Shown in pieces: positions 3,887-39,039 of a stretch of DNA of 64,000 nucleotides; within the stretch, counting starts at the first letter, position 1, and every line of letters begins with the position of its first letter. The notes under the pieces are model-generated. The model did not search any database, was not told where the DNA came from, and saw only the letters and a program-made list of their open reading frames with translations. This stretch comes from an uncultured Candidatus Saccharibacteria bacterium. GTDB lineage: Bacteria; Patescibacteriota; Minisyncoccia; UBA6257; GWB1-50-10. The stretch lies in contig CAYHLH010000001.1 of the NCBI GenBank assembly GCA_964357525.1, positions 11,719-75,718 on the forward strand. Reading direction: 5' to 3'. The translations under genes were made by a program, and so were the position numbers.

Positions 3887-4267
3887 TTATTTCACTCCCT
3901 CACCCTCGGCATCAACTTTTCCACCACGAATATGCGTATTGCTGCATGAAGGACACTTTCCTTTATGATCATCCCGTATACGTTCAAACTCGGATCTGTC
4001 GAAATAATAGATTCGTGAACCATCGGGCATTTTCCAATACCAGCATACCGTTGATTCCCTACAATCAGTGACAAACTCAACCTTTTCACCCGCTCTGCGA
4101 ACATCGGTAACTTCAGAAGGTACGAAATTAACGCCGCGGCTCAAATCTTCTGTGTCTGAACGGGGGAATATCTGCCCCTTATCGCCACCACCACCTAAGG
4201 CATTCACTGTAAAACCTAACGCGGAGATTTCATTGATATTTGAATATTTTTCTGCTTTTTTTACCAA
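3887..4267 (-). CDS. Hypothetical protein with C-terminal CPSC zinc-ribbon-like motif
   Basis: 126 aa ORF with a TTG start; AT-rich flanks; no recognisable family. Confidence 0.4.
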   Translation of the reverse strand: MVKKAEKYSNINEISALGFTVNALGGGGDKGQIFPRSDTEDLSRGVNFVPSEVTDVRRAGEKVEFVTDCRESTVCWYWKMPDGSRIYYFDRSEFERIRDDHKGKCPSCSNTHIRGGKVDAEGEGVK

Positions 4268-4367
4268 AACAGAACCCCTTTCGTTTTTATTAAAAATAAA
4301 TGTTATTTAACTAACTAAAAAATACCATATAATATGGTATAAGTCAATAATCAAAAACGGGACCGAA

Positions 4368-5273
4368 CTACACGTGCAGGTACCGGCGGATGGCGATGAC
4401 CGAAGAAAGGATGCCGAGCGCGACGCCGAAGAGCACCTGGTAGAGGAAAAATTTCAGGAAGTTAGCCGAAAAGTACGCACTTAAGGACACTTCGGGTATG
4501 AAATTGGAAACATATGGCGAGATGAACCCGATGATGGGCACCAAGATGAGGAAACTCACGATGGCGCCGATGACGCCGTAGAGGATGCCCTCCACGATGT
4601 AGGGCCCGCGGATGAAGTTGTTCCCCGCCCCCACGAGCCGCATGATGCCGATGGCGTCGCTGTTCGAGAATATGGCGAGCCGGATGGTGTTGAACGTGAT
4701 CATGATGGCGAGGAAGGAGAGGAACGAAGTGAGGATGGCCCCTCCGTTCCTGATGGTGTCGACGAAGGCGATGAGGCGGTCGATGACGAGTTGGTTCTGC
4801 GCATAGGTCACCTTTTCCACCTGTTCGTTGAACGAGGGCTTGTCGAGATAGCTCGCGATCGTCTCATAGTGGCGAGGGTCATTCGCCTTGATGTTCAGGG
4901 ACGCGAGAAGCGGGTTCTCGTCGAGCTGGGAGAGGGTTTCCGTGATGACCGGATCGTCCTTGTGCTGCTCCTGAAATATGCGGAGAGCGTCGTCGCGCGA
5001 GATGTACTCCACCTCTTTCACCTCCGAAAGCCCTTCAAGGGAACGCTTGATGTTCAGGACGGCGTCCTCGGTGACGTTCGTCTTGAAGTACACGCTGATG
5101 TCTATTTTCTCCTGAATGGACTCCACCGCCCCCTTTGCCACGACGTTGAAGACGATGAGGCCCTCGAAAACGATGAGCGCGAGGACCATGATGCTGATTG
5201 TGGATGCGGAAAGCCACCCGTTCCTCATGAAGCTGCTCCATCCGTATTTCACTATGCGAAGAAGTTTTACCAT
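4368..5273 (-). CDS. ftsX: Cell division permease FtsX
   Basis: 4-TM topology with large periplasmic loop, adjacent and co-directional with ftsE. Confidence 0.85.
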   Translation of the reverse strand: MVKLLRIVKYGWSSFMRNGWLSASTISIMVLALIVFEGLIVFNVVAKGAVESIQEKIDISVYFKTNVTEDAVLNIKRSLEGLSEVKEVEYISRDDALRIFQEQHKDDPVITETLSQLDENPLLASLNIKANDPRHYETIASYLDKPSFNEQVEKVTYAQNQLVIDRLIAFVDTIRNGGAILTSFLSFLAIMITFNTIRLAIFSNSDAIGIMRLVGAGNNFIRGPYIVEGILYGVIGAIVSFLILVPIIGFISPYVSNFIPEVSLSAYFSANFLKFFLYQVLFGVALGILSSVIAIRRYLHV

Positions 5274-5292: not shown

Positions 5293-5976
5293 CTATCCTA
5301 TGATGAACCTCCCGTTCTCCTCGTCTTTCACGACCGCTCCGTTCTCGAGCGTAATGACGCGCTGTCCCAGTGTGTTCACTATCTCCTTGTCGTGCGTCGC
5401 GAGGATGACCGTGCTCCCGAGCTCGTTTATCTTCGTGAGGAGCTTGATGACCTCCCACGTGTTGAAGGGATCCAAATTCCCCGTCGGCTCGTCGGCAACG
5501 AGCACGTCCGGCCTGTTTATCATCGCCCGCGCGATCGCCACGCGCTGTTTTTCCCCGCCCGAGAGCTCCTGCGGGAAATTGTGCGCCTTTTCCCTCAAGC
5601 CCACCATCTCAAGGACCTGCGGGACCAATTCGTTTATCTCCGTCTGCGTGCGCCCCTCAACCTCCAGGGCGAACGCGACGTTTTCGAACGCGGTCTTCTT
5701 CAAAAGAAGGCGGAAATCCTGGAAGATGACGCCGATGTGGCGGCGGTATTCCGGCATCTCGTTCGAACGCAGCTTCTGAACCTCATAGGGGCCGAAGAAT
5801 ACCTGGCCCTTGGTCGGCTTTTCCTCCCCGATGAGGAGCTTGATGATGGTGGATTTCCCCGCCCCCGACCTGCCGACGATGGAAACGAACTCGTTCGGCT
5901 GGATCTTGAAGCTTACCTTGTCCAGGGCTACGGTGCCGTGATTGTAGGTTTTGGTGACGTTTTGGAAGATTATCAT
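5293..5976 (-). CDS. ftsE: Cell division ATP-binding protein FtsE
   Basis: Walker A GRSGAGKST, ABC signature LSGGEKQR, Walker B LVADEP; start set to the internal MIIFQNVTKTY. Confidence 0.9.
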   Translation of the reverse strand: MIIFQNVTKTYNHGTVALDKVSFKIQPNEFVSIVGRSGAGKSTIIKLLIGEEKPTKGQVFFGPYEVQKLRSNEMPEYRRHIGVIFQDFRLLLKKTAFENVAFALEVEGRTQTEINELVPQVLEMVGLREKAHNFPQELSGGEKQRVAIARAMINRPDVLVADEPTGNLDPFNTWEVIKLLTKINELGSTVILATHDKEIVNTLGQRVITLENGAVVKDEENGRFIIG

Positions 5977-6091
5977 GCGATTTTCCCCGATACCGCCGGA
6001 AAAGGCCAGAAAAATGGCGCGATATCGCGGCCTATGAGACAAGTATACACCATTTTCCGCCCCCTGCGCCCCTTGTTGTGGATAAGGAAGA

Positions 6092-6778
6092 TTACCCCTG
6101 GAGGATGTCCAGGTCGCCTTCGAGCACCTTCTCCACCGCGGACCATTTCTTTCCCGTCGCGTGGTCCTTCACCTGCTTGTATGGATGCAGCACGTACGAG
6201 CGTATCTCATGGCCCCACTCGGGACTGACCCTTGTTTTGAGGTTCGCGAGCTCGGTCTCGTGCTTTTCCTTCATGAGCTCGATGAGCTTCGTCTTCAGCA
6301 TCTCCATCGCGCGGTCGCGGTTCGAGCTTTGACTCCTCTCCGCCCTGCACGATACGACGACGCCCGTCGGGATGTGCACCACGCGGACCGCGGTCTCTAC
6401 CTTGTTCACATTCTGCCCGCCGGGGCCACCGGAGCGCGAGAATTCCACCTTGATGTCGCTCTCCGGTATCTTGAGCTTCGCGGTCTCCATTAGGGGAAGG
6501 ATAGGGAGCACCTCCACTAGCGCGAACGAGGTGTGGCGCAACTTCTTCGCGTCAAATGGGGAAATTCTCACGAGCCGATGCACGCCCGCCTCGGAGCGGA
6601 GGCGCGCGTAGGAATCCCCCTTCAATTCGATGATATTGTCGCTTATCTGCGCCGATTTCCAGCCTTTTTTCTCCGCGTAACGGGAATACATGCGAAGGAG
6701 CATTTGCGCCCAATCCTTCGCGTCATCTCCTCCCGCGCCCGCCAACACCGACACTATCGCTCCTTTTGTATTTTCCAT
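6092..6778 (-). CDS. prfB: Peptide chain release factor 2 lacking N-terminal domain 1
   Basis: SPF tripeptide (RISPFDAKK), GGQ motif (SGGPGGQNVNKVETAVR); aligns to RF2 from ~residue 120 onward; ATG is 2 nt from tRNA-Thr. Confidence 0.8.
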   Translation of the reverse strand: MENTKGAIVSVLAGAGGDDAKDWAQMLLRMYSRYAEKKGWKSAQISDNIIELKGDSYARLRSEAGVHRLVRISPFDAKKLRHTSFALVEVLPILPLMETAKLKIPESDIKVEFSRSGGPGGQNVNKVETAVRVVHIPTGVVVSCRAERSQSSNRDRAMEMLKTKLIELMKEKHETELANLKTRVSPEWGHEIRSYVLHPYKQVKDHATGKKWSAVEKVLEGDLDILQG

Positions 6779-6779
6779 G

Positions 6780-6852
6780 AGCCGGAGAGAGGAGTCGAAC
6801 CCCCAACCTTACCCTTACGAAGGGTCTGCTCTGCCATTGAGCTACTCCGGCA
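6780..6852 (-). tRNA. tRNA-Thr (anticodon CGT)
   Basis: Reverse complement GCCGGAGTAGCTCAATGGCAGAGCAGACCCTTCGTAAGGGT...GGTTCGACTCC...CTCCGGC; anticodon loop TTCGTAA. Confidence 0.75.
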
Positions 6853-7297
6853 TACCCCCAACAAACTTACGGCCTTCTTTTGCTCTCTTACTTAACACAC
6901 GCCCTTTTCTCCCACTGCCTTTATTCAACCCTGCATACGTTGGGGTCAGTGAATCGCAGTTCGGACATAGAAGACGAAGGTTGCTCTCTACATTATTGCG
7001 CCAATTGCCATCTATGTGATCAGCCACCAAGGGGCTTTGTTTAGTCACAGGATTTACCTTAGACCATCCGCACAAACAGCAACAGTCGTTGTATTTTCTC
7101 CGCAAATATCGTTTAACATATCTTGAAACTATGCCTAGTCCCTGTAATCCACTTACTTTCCCATCTTTCCACCTCTCGATGTATGACCGATATTGGTATT
7201 CAAGCTGACACACATTACTGCAATAGCGATAATACGAACGCTCCGGTTCTTTGCCACATACCGGACATTTTCTTCTTGGTTTTCGTTGAATCGGCAC
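6842..7297 (-). CDS. HNH endonuclease domain protein
   Basis: CxxC pairs plus HIDG...N...NL..LCPNC HNH motif; 3' end overlaps the 5' end of tRNA-Thr by ~10 nt. Confidence 0.7.
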   Translation of the reverse strand: MPIQRKPRRKCPVCGKEPERSYYRYCSNVCQLEYQYRSYIERWKDGKVSGLQGLGIVSRYVKRYLRRKYNDCCCLCGWSKVNPVTKQSPLVADHIDGNWRNNVESNLRLLCPNCDSLTPTYAGLNKGSGRKGRVLSKRAKEGRKFVGGMPE

Positions 7298-7463
7298 ATA
7301 AGTAATTATACATCAACCCGGGACCAACTCCAAAAGTAACGGCGGTCGTCGATTGTTTGTATTTTAAAGAGCGATAAAAATGTCATCCCCCCGTTGCATT
7401 TCGCGAAGCGAAATTGTTTTGGAGATCTATGGTGGCGATGAATCCGCCCTCCATATTCTTCCC

Positions 7464-7688
7464 TTACTTATTCCTGCGCGTCAAGACGAAGAGATTGTTT
7501 CCCTCGTACTCCAATGTGTAATTGCGGTCGGCGTTGTCCTCAAACTGGCACAACTTGTTTTTCTTCGCCATTTCGAAGAACACCTTCGATTCGGCGGTTT
7601 CCAAGTGGTCCTTAAGGTGATACGCGCCTTCTTTCGCGTCGGAGTCATATCGAACCCTGTAATCGTGTATGTATTTCGTCTCCGCCAT
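7464..7688 (-). CDS. Hypothetical small protein (74 aa)
   Basis: ORF 7464..7892 trimmed to the internal ATG (MAETKYIHDYRVRYDSD...) so it does not overlap the PAP2 gene. Confidence 0.35.
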   Translation of the reverse strand: MAETKYIHDYRVRYDSDAKEGAYHLKDHLETAESKVFFEMAKKNKLCQFEDNADRNYTLEYEGNNLFVLTRRNK

Positions 7689-8246: not shown

Positions 8247-8447
8247 TTAATTTCTGGTGAACGGCAGAAGCCCTAAAATGCGCGCGCGCTTGATGGCGCC
8301 GGCGAGCTGCCTCTGGTGCGAAGCGCACACGCCGGTGTGCCGCGGATCGATGATCTTCGCCTGCGAGGACACGAAACGCCTCAACACCTCGACGTTCTCG
8401 TGATCGATGATCTTGACATTCTGGGAACAAAAAAAGCACTGGCGCAT
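8247..8447 (-). CDS. rpsR: 30S ribosomal protein S18
   Basis: CFFC...IDHENVEVLRRFVSSQAKI.PRHTGVCASHQRQL..AIKRARILGLLPF. Confidence 0.9.
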   Translation of the reverse strand: MRQCFFCSQNVKIIDHENVEVLRRFVSSQAKIIDPRHTGVCASHQRQLAGAIKRARILGLLPFTRN

Positions 8448-8662
8448 GCCGATTATATATAAATTTTCGAGTCCACCGACGATGAAAATTTATCCATAGA
8501 ATCGAGCACCCCGCACATAATATGCCGATTCGACGATGTATAATATTCTATTTTACTCCTGTTGTTCATAAAATTAATTTTAATGAATCGCTTATGTGCA
8601 GGGTTTAGGTTTGGTAATCAAAAATTCTTCGCCCGCGGCTCGAATTTTTGAACCAAGCCCTA
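8448..8662 (-). promoter_or_regulatory. Conserved upstream leader module, copy D (type-2 P1 stem), between ssb stop and rpsR start
   Basis: P1 arms GAGCACCCCGCACATAA (8504-8520) / TTATGTGCAGGGT (8592-8604). H0 TCAAAAATTCTTCGCCCGCGGCTCGAATTTTTGA then ACCAAGCCC. uORF MDKFSSSVDSKIYI* at 8453-8497, stop 5 nt before rpsR ATG. Confidence 0.65.
8453..8497 (-). CDS. candidate leader peptide MDKFSSSVDSKIYI (uORF) upstream of rpsR
   Basis: ATG GAT AAA TTT TCA TCG TCG GTG GAC TCG AAA ATT TAT ATA TAA on the minus strand. Confidence 0.35.
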   Translation of the reverse strand: MDKFSSSVDSKIYI

Positions 8663-35892: not shown

Positions 35893-36303
35893 CTATCGCT
35901 TTATTTTAAAGCGAAACTTTCTTTCTTCCCCGCTTTTTCGACAGTTCGGTGATTTCCCCTCTTCGGTGATGGCGATCCTATCCTCCTCGCTTTCCCCTTC
36001 CGGCGGGGACACCACGAACGATGTCTTTTCCTTGGTGCGGTCGTCCGTCACTTTCGCGATCTTTTCGGTGACGACGTTGTCCGCGCGGAGGATGAATACC
36101 TTGAGGCGGCGGAGGAATTTCTCGAACCACACCTTCAGCACCTCGTCCGCATGCTCGAGCATGAGCGTGAGCTCGTGCGTCCTGATGCGCGAACGGCTTT
36201 CCAGGAACACCTCGTTCGAAACCCTGGGGAGCGCGCGAAGGGCCAACACGATGACCCCCGCAAGCCCCGCGAACACCGCTATTTCGAAGATGAACGACCA
36301 CAT
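35893..36303 (-). CDS. Hypothetical membrane protein (N-terminal TM, charged coiled-coil C-terminus)
   Basis: 136 aa; start abuts leader module copy F. Confidence 0.5.
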   Translation of the reverse strand: MWSFIFEIAVFAGLAGVIVLALRALPRVSNEVFLESRSRIRTHELTLMLEHADEVLKVWFEKFLRRLKVFILRADNVVTEKIAKVTDDRTKEKTSFVVSPPEGESEEDRIAITEEGKSPNCRKSGEERKFRFKIKR

Positions 36304-36500
36304 GCGAATGATGTCTAAATTTTCGAGTGCCGCCGTAGCGATGAAAATTTAGCCACAACATTCAGCACCCGCCTAAGTTTTTGAATTTCTATTACGGACT
36401 TTCCCATGTCTATATTATACATCTTCAAAAATTTGGGCGGGTAAGATTCGGTACTCAAAAATCCCTCGCCTTTGGCTCAGATTTTTGAACCGAGCCCTTA
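36304..36500 (-). promoter_or_regulatory. Conserved upstream leader module, copy F
   Basis: P1 arms CAGCACCCGCCTAAGTTTTTG / CAAAAATTTGGGCGGGTAAG; H0 CTCAAAAATCCCTCGCCTTTGGCTCAGATTTTTGA then ACCGAGCCC; possible GTG-initiated uORF (M)AKFSSLRRHSKI* at 36315-36356. Confidence 0.6.
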
Positions 36501-37908: not shown

Positions 37909-38958
37909 CTAAATAAACCTCGCCATGAAGAAAAGTATGAGGCCGAGTATGGTCATCACGCCGGAGATTATCCAGAAACGCATGGTCACCTGCGTTTCGG
38001 GCCAGCCGAGCCCCTCGAAGTGGTGGTGGATGGGCGTGGAAAGGAAGAGCTTACGCCCGAGGAGCTTCTTGTGGAGAACCTGGATGATGACGGAGCCCGA
38101 CTCGATGAGGAGGATGAATCCGAAGAATGGGAGGAAAAGGGCCGTGTTCGTGAACATCGCCATGACCCCGAGGGTGATGCCGAGCCCCATCGAACCCGTG
38201 TCCCCCATGAAGAACTTCGCGGGATGCACGTTGTACCAGAGGAACGCCAAAAGCGCCCCCAATATCGCCGCGTTCATCGCCGCGAGGTCGAACCGGTTCA
38301 TGATGAAGGACACGATGGCCATGGCACAGAACGAGAAGAAGAGCACTCCGCCTGAAAGTCCGTCCAGGCCGTCCGTCTCGTTCGCGGAGAACGCCGTCGC
38401 GACCACCACGAACACGAAGAAAAGCATGTACCACGCGCCGAGGTCCACGAGCCCGAGGAACGGAACGTAGATCTCGCTCCAGCCGAGCCGTATGTGGAAC
38501 CACCACGCGCCTATGAGCGACACCAGTGTGTAGAGCGCGAGCTTGTGCTTGATGGTGATGCCGCCGCCCTTGCCGGACCCCTTCCCGATGATGCCCCAGA
38601 AATCGTCGATGAATCCGACAATGGCGCCGAAAGCCAATGCCGCGAGCGGCACATAGGTCTCGGGGCGGGAAACGAAGTTCAGGTATCCGAGAAATCCGTC
38701 GAAGGCGAGGTCTCCAAGGAAAAGTATGACGGCGAGCCCCAACACCGTACCCCATATGATGACGCCGCCCATCGTCGGCGTGTCGAATTTGTGCTTGTGA
38801 TGCTCGTAAAAAACGGGCGCGGTCGCCGCGTCGCGGATGTTCCTCTTCTTCAGCCCGTACTTGAGGAGCGCGCGGTACACGAAGGGCGTGATGCCCAAGG
38901 CCACGATGAACGCGATGGCGAAAACTATGAGCGCGCGTATGCTTTCGAAAACTTCCAT
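37909..38958 (-). CDS. mraY: Phospho-N-acetylmuramoyl-pentapeptide-transferase
   Basis: 10-TM MraY with MGDTGSMGLG motif. Confidence 0.9.
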   Translation of the reverse strand: MEVFESIRALIVFAIAFIVALGITPFVYRALLKYGLKKRNIRDAATAPVFYEHHKHKFDTPTMGGVIIWGTVLGLAVILFLGDLAFDGFLGYLNFVSRPETYVPLAALAFGAIVGFIDDFWGIIGKGSGKGGGITIKHKLALYTLVSLIGAWWFHIRLGWSEIYVPFLGLVDLGAWYMLFFVFVVVATAFSANETDGLDGLSGGVLFFSFCAMAIVSFIMNRFDLAAMNAAILGALLAFLWYNVHPAKFFMGDTGSMGLGITLGVMAMFTNTALFLPFFGFILLIESGSVIIQVLHKKLLGRKLFLSTPIHHHFEGLGWPETQVTMRFWIISGVMTILGLILFFMARFI

Positions 38959-38963
38959 GCCGA

Positions 38964-39008
38964 TTATATATAAATTTTCGAGTCTGCCAACGATGAAAAT
39001 TTATTCAT
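38964..39008 (-). CDS. candidate leader peptide MNKFSSLADSKIYI (uORF) upstream of mraY
   Basis: ATG AAT AAA TTT TCA TCG TTG GCA GAC TCG AAA ATT TAT ATA TAA; stop 5 nt before the mraY ATG. Confidence 0.35.
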   Translation of the reverse strand: MNKFSSLADSKIYI

Positions 39009-39039
39009 AAAATCGAGCACCCGCCTAAATTTTTGAATC

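Follow-up and report, generated by a model that had tools for sequence, protein, structure and literature searches.

A short release factor 2 gene without domain 1, in the prfB position behind tRNA-Thr(CGT), in Patescibacteria

RF2 genes (prfB) commonly, though not universally, carry a +1 frameshift site near codon 26. Domain 1 is a helical domain at the N-terminus, through which the E. coli factors touch ribosomal protein L11 and RF3. In RF1 and RF2, which are release factors of class I, it bridges the N-terminal domain of L11 and domain 3 of RF3 (PMC3677378), and it has been regarded as belonging to the architecture universal in bacteria (PMC6514570). PrfH and ArfB/ICT1 share the GGQ domain of release factors but lack an N-terminal domain for interaction with a GTPase (PMC6514570); they are rescue factors that exist beside the canonical RF1 and RF2, whereas in the genomes described here the canonical RF1 and RF2 orthologues are themselves truncated. 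We found no published description of such short forms in the literature on the release factors of Patescibacteria, CPR, Parcubacteria and Paceibacteria.

The setting of the gene also has described counterparts. In the thrU-tyrU-glyT-thrT-tufB operon of E. coli, tRNA genes immediately precede, in the same orientation, a gene for a translation factor, as a single tRNA gene does here; between thrT and tufB there is a spacer of the order of 100 nt that includes a Shine-Dalgarno site. In mitochondria, tRNA punctuation means that the excision of a tRNA sets the 5' end of the mRNA. The prfB junction differs from that of tufB in that its ATG follows the discriminator base by 1-9 nt in many genomes, a mitochondria-like spacing that suggests similar processing. 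Mitochondrial mRNAs are leaderless (PMC6924987). For a bacterial chromosomal gene, we found no description of tRNA punctuation in the literature. Finally, the T4 gene for SegB is a free-standing homing-endonuclease gene in a phage tRNA gene cluster (PMC2330249), and the HNH enzymes F-TflI/II/IV of T5 are placed in phage tRNA gene clusters by work cited in that paper.

A short prfB in the prfB-ftsE-ftsX operon

We analyzed a stretch of 64,000 nucleotides (the window), in which the following features surround the short prfB:

4368..5273, minus strand: ftsX, permease, third gene of prfB-ftsE-ftsX (Pfam FtsX_ECD and FtsX, synteny)
5293..5976, minus strand: ftsE, ABC ATPase (Pfam ABC_tran; likely start at the ATG at 5976, for a length of 227 aa, which relatives share)
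6092..6778, minus strand: short prfB, RF2 with domains 2-4 only (228-aa ORF, ATG start)
6780..6851, minus strand: tRNA-Thr(CGT) (Rfam RF00005, 59.9 bits, gathering score 29; 6779..6851 by ARAGORN)
6842..7297, minus strand: free-standing HNH gene (151 aa; N-terminal zinc ribbon and HNH motif; PHROG HNH, E=1e-17)
7305..7333, minus strand: putative sigma-70-type promoter (-35 TTGGAG at 7328-7333, 17-nt spacer, -10 TATAAT at 7305-7310)
7464..7688, minus strand: conserved 74-aa ORF (MAETKYIHDY...), upstream border of the HNH insertion (no Pfam match)

The 228-aa RF2 has SPF at residues 73-75 and GGQ at residues 120-122. Pfam detected RF-1 and a partial PCRF domain (profile positions 98-194 of 194), and the NCBIfam prfB model (TIGR00020) gave 291.5 bits over model positions 114-346 of 353, below its cut-off of 370 because domain 1 is missing (the full-length sister P0122 reaches 371 bits). 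Likewise, the alignment of RF2 chains from the PDB begins only at about residue 109-130. The initial annotation, which described an RF2 with both motifs and no domain 1, is thus borne out by Pfam, NCBIfam and the PDB, with alignments starting at around residue 110-125. As it also held, the locus has no room for domain 1: 5' of the ATG, the prfB frame is open for just 10 further codons, which run into the tRNA and include no start codon. The +1 programmed frameshift site is absent from the short prfB, and frameshift autoregulation would not be usable by this gene because the N-terminal region that usually bears the site is not encoded. By tblastn, an approximate E. coli RF2 query matched this gene as the sole release-factor gene of the window, with nothing significant for domain 1. 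In a search for contigs encoding it, the exact 228-aa sequence was not on record.

Compared with canonical bacterial RF2, such as that of T. thermophilus (2ihr) or E. coli (1gqe), domains 2-4 of the short RF2 are 41-47% identical. What differs is the lack of the whole of domain 1 (about 105-125 residues), whose contacts with L11 and RF3 are thereby closed to the short RF2, and a deletion of roughly 10 residues in domain 2, which is common to the full-length sister lineage. The AF2 model of the protein (pLDDT 83, pTM 0.80) describes the compact form only and is silent on ribosomal function; when compared by Foldseek with the free RF2 structures 2ihr and 1gqe, it gave TMq values of 0.77-0.79 with a probability of 1.0. 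As modelled, the fold of domains 2/4 and 3 is retained.

The gene occupies the orthologous prfB position. ftsE is its conserved downstream partner, and the order prfB-ftsE-ftsX was found in each of the eight related loci for which genes were called. The full-length P0121, 59% identical to the short RF2, is followed by ftsE and ftsX too, and the nearest full-length RF2s (58-60% identity) share this operon position with the short prfB. TGA ends 13 of the 21 window ORFs of at least 320 aa, rpoC and rpoB included, in agreement with the initial statement that TGA is a stop codon in the window. Among the window ORFs scanned, none matched L11, RF3 or RNase Z.

Regarding the distribution of the short form, the best 120 homologues of the short RF2 were all 220-278 aa long, with 67-99% identity, and their names point to Jorgensenbacteria, Brennerbacteria, Paceibacterota or Minisyncoccia (Patescibacteria, Parcubacteria group). 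The same short prfB was present in about 113 non-identical metagenome loci. Across the loci of the clade, the decoding motif was SPF in 102 and SPY in 12, and GPGGQNVN was found in 106 out of 106 loci with an intact short RF2; an alignment of 32 members had 88 invariant columns. The RF2 genes of Saccharibacteria and Azambacteria are full length. A contig scan with the 228-aa RF2 returned, among the matches listed, mostly full-length RF2 of other phyla, with L009 as the only short-clade locus; these RF2 loci served as our control set for ORF length and domain 1 detection. The short RF2 is a conserved, clade-wide and apparently functional RF2 of Patescibacteria (Parcubacteria group).

RF1 is shortened as well as RF2, so that the reduction is wider than first proposed. 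P0257 and the 119 other RF1 homologues listed measure 230-255 aa. The motif kept in the short RF1 is PVT. A single contig of 278,717 bp encodes P0357 (RF1 type) and P0057 (RF2 type), both of them short, and P0357 scored 366 bits against the prfA model over positions 104-338. RF1 and RF2 both lack domain 1 in the same clade.

Our preferred reading, to which we give a probability of about 0.7, is that the 228-aa gene is the tRNA-coupled prfB orthologue of a large Patescibacteria clade in which both class-I release factors lack domain 1, and that the HNH gene is a separate matter. A lineage with a reduced RF2 was one of the two explanations initially offered, and it is the one that fits a clade-wide short form in the prfB slot and a short RF1. 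The short RF2 would keep the stop-codon-decoding superdomain 2/4 (SPF, or SPY in some) and the GGQ peptidyl-tRNA hydrolase domain 3. Peptide release at UGA and UAA is predicted as the most likely activity, probably by the short factor alone and with no RF3-assisted recycling.

If this holds, a large clade with both factors devoid of domain 1 would show, as an experiment of nature, that this domain is dispensable; it would also supply structural and synthetic biology with minimal release factors and add one more case to the ribosome reductions of Patescibacteria. Since the short proteins fall under the prfA and prfB cut-offs, annotation pipelines label them 'release factor-like' or 'PCRF domain-containing', and marker sets that include TIGR00019 and TIGR00020 would score such genomes as missing both genes.

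The junction between tRNA-Thr(CGT) and prfB

In the window, the discriminator base of tRNA-Thr(CGT) lies at 6780 and the prfB ATG at 6778. The adjacency first noted therefore stands, with a gap of 1 nt by Rfam (0 nt by ARAGORN) instead of the 2 nt given then. A lone C follows the discriminator base, and thus CCA is not encoded for this tRNA. In 94 of about 113 related loci, tRNA-Thr(CGT) was found upstream of prfB on the same strand, a recurrence which argues that the adjacency is not due to chance. No tRNA was present upstream of prfB in 12 loci, and about 45 loci had a longer spacer or an intervening gene between both; hence, the tight junction is common but not obligatory. When we measured the distance from discriminator base to ATG in the 49 tight junctions, it was 1-9 nt in 28, 11-19 nt in 8 and 26-78 nt in 13. 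The shortest class leaves no room for a Shine-Dalgarno site, while some of the 26-78 nt spacers have Shine-Dalgarno-like runs. In some lineages, the 3' acceptor strand of the tRNA contains GGAGGUGG, which could act as a Shine-Dalgarno site on an unprocessed transcript.

The same junction is found before full-length genes. In L211 and L212, a 347-aa full-length RF2 starts 5 nt after the same tRNA-Thr, and in L211 this gene is a single continuous ORF with no frameshift. The junction must therefore have been in place before domain 1 was lost; by this comparison of gene arrangements, it is ancestral and not the cause of the loss. In about 11 loci, an unrelated ORF lies between tRNA and prfB, its start being offset by -1 to +3 nt relative to the end of the tRNA, with prfB close behind it in most of them. 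A 211-aa MBL-fold gene sometimes found in this position was considered as a candidate RNase Z and rejected: it matches Pfam Lactamase_B_3 and Lactamase_B_2 and seems too short. At L009, the encoded CCA overlaps the ATG, so that tRNA and mRNA cannot both mature from one transcript.

We propose that the expression of prfB is coupled to tRNA-Thr(CGT). The 5' end of the mRNA would most likely come from tRNA 3' processing, with an RNase Z-type enzyme cutting behind the discriminator base. The product would be a leaderless or near-leaderless prfB-ftsE-ftsX mRNA, as the DNA spacing suggests. Taken as a whole, a model in which termination on a reduced ribosome proceeds free of RF3 and of L11 contacts, and in which tRNA punctuation replaces +1 frameshift autoregulation of prfB, seems to us evenly balanced between right and wrong. 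Processing at the junction, if confirmed, would give the tRNA punctuation of mitochondria a counterpart in bacteria.

It could be argued that the abutment of tRNA and ATG has no role in expression, the transcript being left unprocessed or prfB being read from an internal promoter, and that the tight spacing is a consequence of genome compaction. The genomes of Patescibacteria are compact, the spacer varies from 1 to 78 nt, and the acceptor strand of some lineages has GGAGGUGG at 5-13 nt upstream of the ATG. However, the other four tRNAs of the window lie about 180-300 nt from the next ORF, and the near-zero spacing also holds for the unrelated ORFs that follow the same tRNA. In the window itself, the acceptor strand reads CUCCGGC, which does not resemble a Shine-Dalgarno site, and no -10 box precedes the prfB ATG; besides, where these loci have an HNH gene, it too is of leaderless type. 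With these points against it, an abutment of no consequence seems rather unlikely, although it deserves to be kept in mind.

Searches for a second factor and for a separate domain 1

One could also argue that the short protein is a paralogue, an accessory or rescue factor like PrfH or ArfB, and that another gene of the genome encodes a canonical full-length RF2. The natural release factors known to lack domain 1, PrfH and ArfB, are indeed accessory factors (PMC6514570), and the NCBIfam prfB score of our protein falls under the cut-off. Yet this model is the best by far: it gives 291 bits, whereas the PrfH and ArfB models reach 81 and 57. The PrfH score (TIGR03072, 80.6 bits) does not reach the cut-off of 166.65, and the ArfB model matches over residues 99-133 only. 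PrfH has a divergent decoding domain and RtcB as its partner, whereas the short RF2 retains the canonical SPF motif and has tRNA, ftsE and ftsX as neighbours, with no rtcB among them; ArfB lacks a decoding domain and ends in a basic tail, whereas that domain is present here with its SPF. The gene also sits in the same slot of prfB-ftsE-ftsX as the full-length gene of the sister lineage, RF1 is shortened likewise on the same contig, no full-length protein from the taxa with a short RF2 appeared among the best 120 matches, and the contigs that carry the short genes suggest genomes well under 1 Mb. Loci of the short clade amounting to about 0.8 Mb yielded no additional RF1 or RF2; they are local neighbourhoods and have little bearing on whole genomes. 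Altogether, a paralogue appears improbable, and we infer that the short RF2 is the sole RF2 of its genome.

A split gene, in which domain 1 is made from a small gene of its own and then joins the short factor, is more improbable still. This domain evolves fast and is hard to detect; yet three CPR domain 1 queries, for which tblastn across the window and some 0.8 Mb of short-clade loci gave no significant match, matched nearly all the full-length control loci, those of distant phyla included. The only domain 1 match among short-clade loci, in L152, belongs to a disrupted gene of the full-length type. A search of the database with domain 1 of P0122 was insensitive (18 candidates scored, two short fragments returned) and led to L213, where a 63-codon domain 1 ORF is followed by an in-frame TAA stop codon and a 245-aa ORF. 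This arrangement would look like a split gene, but L213 belongs to the full-length sister lineage and has the look of a gene with a nonsense mutation, in which the latter half of domain 1 has decayed. Moreover, a split would require two separate events, one in RF1 and one in RF2.

The HNH gene upstream of the tRNA

The second explanation initially offered was that insertion of the tRNA and the HNH gene had removed the RF2 N-terminus. That a local disruption of this kind, by the tRNA, the HNH gene or both, cut off the 5' third of prfB and left a remnant can be dismissed for practical purposes: the adjacency of tRNA, HNH gene and prfB and the foreign GC content of the HNH region would favour it, but the short form is conserved with intact motifs across hundreds of sequences, the closest relatives L002-L005 have the same short gene and no HNH gene, the full-length RF2 of L211 and L212 begins at the same junction with the tRNA, and the HNH gene, situated 5' of the tRNA, leaves prfB untouched. 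Related genomes with a short RF2 and neither neighbour had been envisaged as the mark of a lineage trait; L002-L005 provide the part concerning the HNH gene, and for the tRNA the neighbour proved to be ancestral instead. According to our preferred reading, then, the HNH gene has a history apart from that of the short prfB.

The 3' end of the 151-aa HNH gene overlaps the 5' end of tRNA-Thr, as annotated initially, by 10 nt, and its stop codon TAG coincides with U8-A9-G10 of the tRNA. The ORF has the motif DHIDGNWRNN...N...CPNC, and its match to Pfam HNH_3 is weak (E=0.003) and under the cut-off. The GC content of the HNH region is 42-47%, against 55-65% in its flanks, and the distance from the 74-aa ORF to the tRNA is 612 nt in the window and 118 nt in L002. 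The gene is present in 9 of about 113 loci (the window and 8 other distinct ones), always 5' of tRNA-Thr(CGT), and between divergent hosts the HNH identities equal or exceed those of RF2. The protein matches 159 phage records and is 40-47% identical to phage HNH endonucleases, whose genes lie inside tRNA gene clusters, between tRNA genes, adjoining or overlapping the next tRNA. From the phage tRNA-cluster endonucleases, the window gene differs in being chromosomal, in its constant place 5' of this one tRNA and in having its stop codon inside the tRNA. On the basis of its similarities and distribution, we consider the ORF a sporadic, phage-like, tRNA-associated candidate homing-endonuclease gene.

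The GTG start of the HNH gene lies 7 nt from the end of the putative -10 box, and a TATAAT-like box was found 6-7 nt before the start codon in all seven complete HNH homologues. The consensus scan did not list the putative promoter because its -35 box matches at only 3 of 6 positions. This promoter would drive the HNH gene, tRNA-Thr and prfB, and perhaps ftsE and ftsX. The HNH gene has probably inserted between the promoter of the tRNA and the tRNA itself, borrowing U8-A9-G10 as stop codon; lying between them, it would occupy the position of the pre-tRNA 5' leader, and would thus be a putative homing endonuclease living in a pre-tRNA leader on a bacterial chromosome.

A domain-1-less release factor 2 and its clade

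Between positions 6092 and 7297 of the window, three features abut or overlap on the minus strand: a short release factor 2 (RF2, prfB) gene, a tRNA-Thr gene and an HNH endonuclease gene. The initial observation of this arrangement was confirmed.

Features of the locus and of the DNA upstream of it
6092-6778, minus: short RF2 ORF, 228 aa (Pfam RF-1 and the C-terminal half of PCRF)
6779/6780-6851, minus: tRNA-Thr(CGT) (ARAGORN; Rfam 59.9 bits)
6842-7297, minus: HNH endonuclease ORF, 151 aa (PHROG E=1e-17; Pfam match weak)
7333-7305, minus: putative promoter, TTGGAG, 17 nt, TATAAT (read from the sequence)
7464-7688, minus: conserved 74-aa ORF (MAETKYIHDY...), no Pfam match

The 228-aa protein retains the SPF (residues 73-75) and GGQ (residues 120-122) motifs and, by Pfam, NCBIfam and structure alignments, is missing domain 1, the N-terminal helical domain of class-I release factors. 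Its PCRF match covers only profile positions 98-194 of 194, and alignment to solved RF2 structures begins only at residue ~109-130. Among NCBIfam models, prfB ranks first: positions 114-346 of its 353 align at 291.5 bits, short of the 370-bit cut-off. PrfH and ArfB trail far behind, at 80.6 and 56.8 bits, respectively. We found no further start codon in the RF2 frame upstream of the ATG. The AF2 model (pLDDT 83, pTM 0.80) overlays domains 2-4 of free compact RF2, with TMq values of 0.77 for 2ihr and 0.79 for 1gqe. The use of TGA as a stop codon, also proposed initially, holds as well: rpoB and rpoC end in TGA, and among the 21 ORFs with 320 aa or more, 13 do so.

The best 120 database homologues of this RF2 are all 220-278 aa long, with 67-99% identity, and their named sources are Jorgensenbacteria (a member of the Parcubacteria group, Patescibacteria), Brennerbacteria, Paceibacterota, Minisyncoccia and 'Parcubacteria group'. 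Using clade-specific DNA encoding GGDDAKDW as a search pattern, we retrieved 120 metagenomic stretches; after removal of 5 chance hits and duplicates, and with the addition of the loci fetched earlier and the window, ~113 non-identical short-prfB loci were available. Their decoding motif is SPF in 102 and SPY in 12, all 106 loci with an intact short RF2 encode GPGGQNVN, and a 32-member alignment contains 88 invariant columns. In all eight related loci with called genes, short prfB is followed by ftsE and ftsX. Judging from these sequences, the short RF2 is a lineage trait rather than a local accident. Of the two readings put forward in the initial annotation, the clade-wide short homologues support the one in which the lineage uses a reduced RF2, which extends to RF1 (see below).

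Among the representatives of a library clustered at 50% identity, those closest to the short RF2 (58-59% identity) are full length: P0121, with 337 aa, and P0122, with 347 aa, the latter reaching the prfB cut-off. P0121 also has ftsE and ftsX downstream, which makes the long and the short form positional orthologues. Full-length genes are also found in an uncultured Parcubacteria genome (L010, 60% identity), in Saccharibacteria genomes and in one Azambacteria genome; thus, the short form derived within one Parcubacteria-group subclade. A ~10-residue deletion in domain 2 is common to the short RF2 and its full-length sister sequences. Domain-1 queries taken from three RF2s of the candidate phyla radiation (CPR, Patescibacteria) recovered the domain from almost every full-length control locus, across many phyla, and gave no significant match to the short clade in the 64-kb window and ~0.8 Mb of loci, the sole match among the short-clade loci searched being a disrupted full-length-type gene (L152). 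One further locus, L213, of the full-length sister lineage, has 94% nucleotide identity over domains 2-4 to L211, a locus with full-length RF2, and the same tRNA junction. Its prfB (4001-5071) has a TAA in frame behind codon 63 of domain 1, the second half of that domain has diverged, and an intact 245-aa ORF for domains 2-4 starts at an internal ATG (METIFFGKYDKG...). This single contig could represent domain-1 decay in progress, or a sequencing error.

The tRNA-Thr junction and the HNH gene

According to the second reading, insertion of the tRNA and the HNH gene removed the N-terminus of RF2. This is refuted at both elements. The full-length RF2 of L211 and L212 starts 5 nt past the discriminator base of tRNA-Thr; therefore, the junction already existed when domain 1 was lost, and is excluded as the cause. 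The HNH gene, for its part, is missing from the closest relatives, L002-L005, which have a short RF2 with 80.6-82.2% identity to that of the window over the compared region, and the distance from the conserved 74-aa ORF to the tRNA is 118 nt in L002 versus 612 nt in the window. This ORF, flanked by the PAP2 gene and the tRNA locus, is also present in L002 and L005. By these comparisons, the HNH gene is unrelated to the truncation.

The gap between the discriminator base and the prfB ATG in the window is 1 nt, not the 2 nt initially given. Across the clade, a tRNA-Thr(CGT) in the orientation of prfB is found no more than 2.5 kb upstream in 94 of the ~113 loci; it is inverted in 1, absent in 12, and 6 have too little upstream DNA. 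The 49 tight loci (tRNA within 130 nt of the conserved motif) fall into three groups by gap, with 28 at 1-9 nt, 8 at 11-19 nt and 13 at 26-78 nt. Their spacers are A/T-rich, and in L009 the encoded CCA and the ATG overlap by one A. The other four tRNAs of the window are ~180-300 nt from the next ORF. In ~11 loci an unrelated ORF is placed between tRNA-Thr and prfB, a ~211-aa MBL-fold protein in three (L006, L108, L130) and other proteins in L089, L162, L157, L127, L118, L194 and L150, with several unknowns. Their starts all fall between -1 and +3 nt relative to the end of the tRNA, with prfB close behind in most; the slot directly 3' of tRNA-Thr behaves like a first-cistron expression site.

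From its distribution, the junction is ancestral, and it looks functional. The tRNA and prfB(-ftsE-ftsX) would be co-transcribed, and RNase Z-type cleavage behind the discriminator base, at the 3' end of the tRNA, would yield a leaderless or near-leaderless prfB mRNA. A spacer of 1-9 nt leaves no space for a Shine-Dalgarno site. As an alternative to tRNA processing, prfB could be translated from the precursor transcript, but the acceptor strand of the window tRNA (CUCCGGC) is not Shine-Dalgarno-like; or it could have an unrecognised promoter, although no -10 box was seen before its ATG in the window. The frameshift autoregulation typical of prfB would be absent from the short gene.

The prfB 5' end appears to be a recurrent insertion site: in L005 (~5858-6000) and in L161, directly after the tRNA, a remnant of the prfB N-terminus (..KGAIISVFAGA and MNYNPNTITISVLAGA, respectively) is followed by a ~100-150-nt insert, a new ATG and an intact short prfB. 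L092 and L117 carry partial copies of the tRNA-Thr 5' half ~50 nt upstream of the intact tRNA, which may be footprints of an earlier insertion or gene conversion there.

The HNH 3' end overlaps the tRNA 5' end, as originally described, by 10 nt, its TAG stop being tRNA nucleotides 8-10. GC content is 42-47% across the HNH region versus 55-65% in the flanks. Eight other distinct loci of the short clade carry a homologue (63-81% identity), in each case directly 5' of tRNA-Thr(CGT) and in the orientation of the tRNA; in four lineages its stop codon coincides with tRNA nucleotides 8-10, and elsewhere the offset is 0, -17, -19, +21 or +26 nt. In each of the seven complete copies, a TATAAT-like box precedes the start codon by 6-7 nt, and thus the ORF sits in the pre-tRNA 5' leader position, leaderless in type. 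Between divergent hosts, HNH similarity exceeds RF2 similarity (72% versus 53.5% for the pair L108/L197, for instance), which fits horizontal spread of the HNH gene. Phage homologues (159 records, 40-47% identity) and three viral contigs have the gene within tRNA clusters, where it abuts or overlaps the tRNA that follows, a placement resembling that of the tRNA-region homing endonucleases of phages T4 and T5 (PMC2330249). By its relatives, the gene is of a common mobile type, and what is unusual is its chromosomal niche.

Short RF1 and an intergenic repeat

An exhaustive search returned P0257 (232 aa), recognisable as RF1 by its PVT motif and a C-terminus of RF1 type. The other 119 homologues listed for it are likewise 230-255 aa long, under the names Zambryskibacteria, Liptonbacteria, Colwellbacteria, Paceibacterota and Minisyncoccia. 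P0357 is of RF1 type, scoring 366 bits against prfA over model positions 104-338 of 347, and shares one 278,717-bp contig with P0057, which is of RF2 type; therefore, both class-I factors of at least that genome are without domain 1. The domain-1-less RF1 is recorded at L209 5001-5735 (L209 and L210 are one contig). In its GGQ region (SRAGGPGGQNVNKVETAVR), the clade's RF1 has almost the same sequence as the short RF2, suggestive of gene conversion between RF1 and RF2, or of co-evolution. Domain 1 of the E. coli factors links the N-terminal domain of L11 to domain 3 of RF3 (PMC3677378). Our literature search found no description of such short factors; a survey of release-factor diversity gives only PrfH and ArfB-type proteins as lacking domain 1 and leaves CPR unmentioned (PMC6514570). 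Both short factors score under the NCBIfam cut-offs (366 versus 400 for prfA, 291 versus 370 for prfB), and are therefore named 'release factor-like' or 'PCRF domain-containing' by sources. Such scores could lower marker-based completeness estimates of their genomes.

The window also contains at least four intergenic copies of an AT-rich repeat of ~80 nt (CATGCCGATTATATATAAATTTTCGAGTC...GAATCGAGCACCC):

~8445-8525, plus: repeat copy
38956-39035, plus: repeat copy
2535-2604, minus: repeat copy
36301-36380, plus: repeat copy

A second shared block lies near the repeat, at ~944-1004 and 36444-36498. The repeat may be a promoter/terminator module or a small mobile element.
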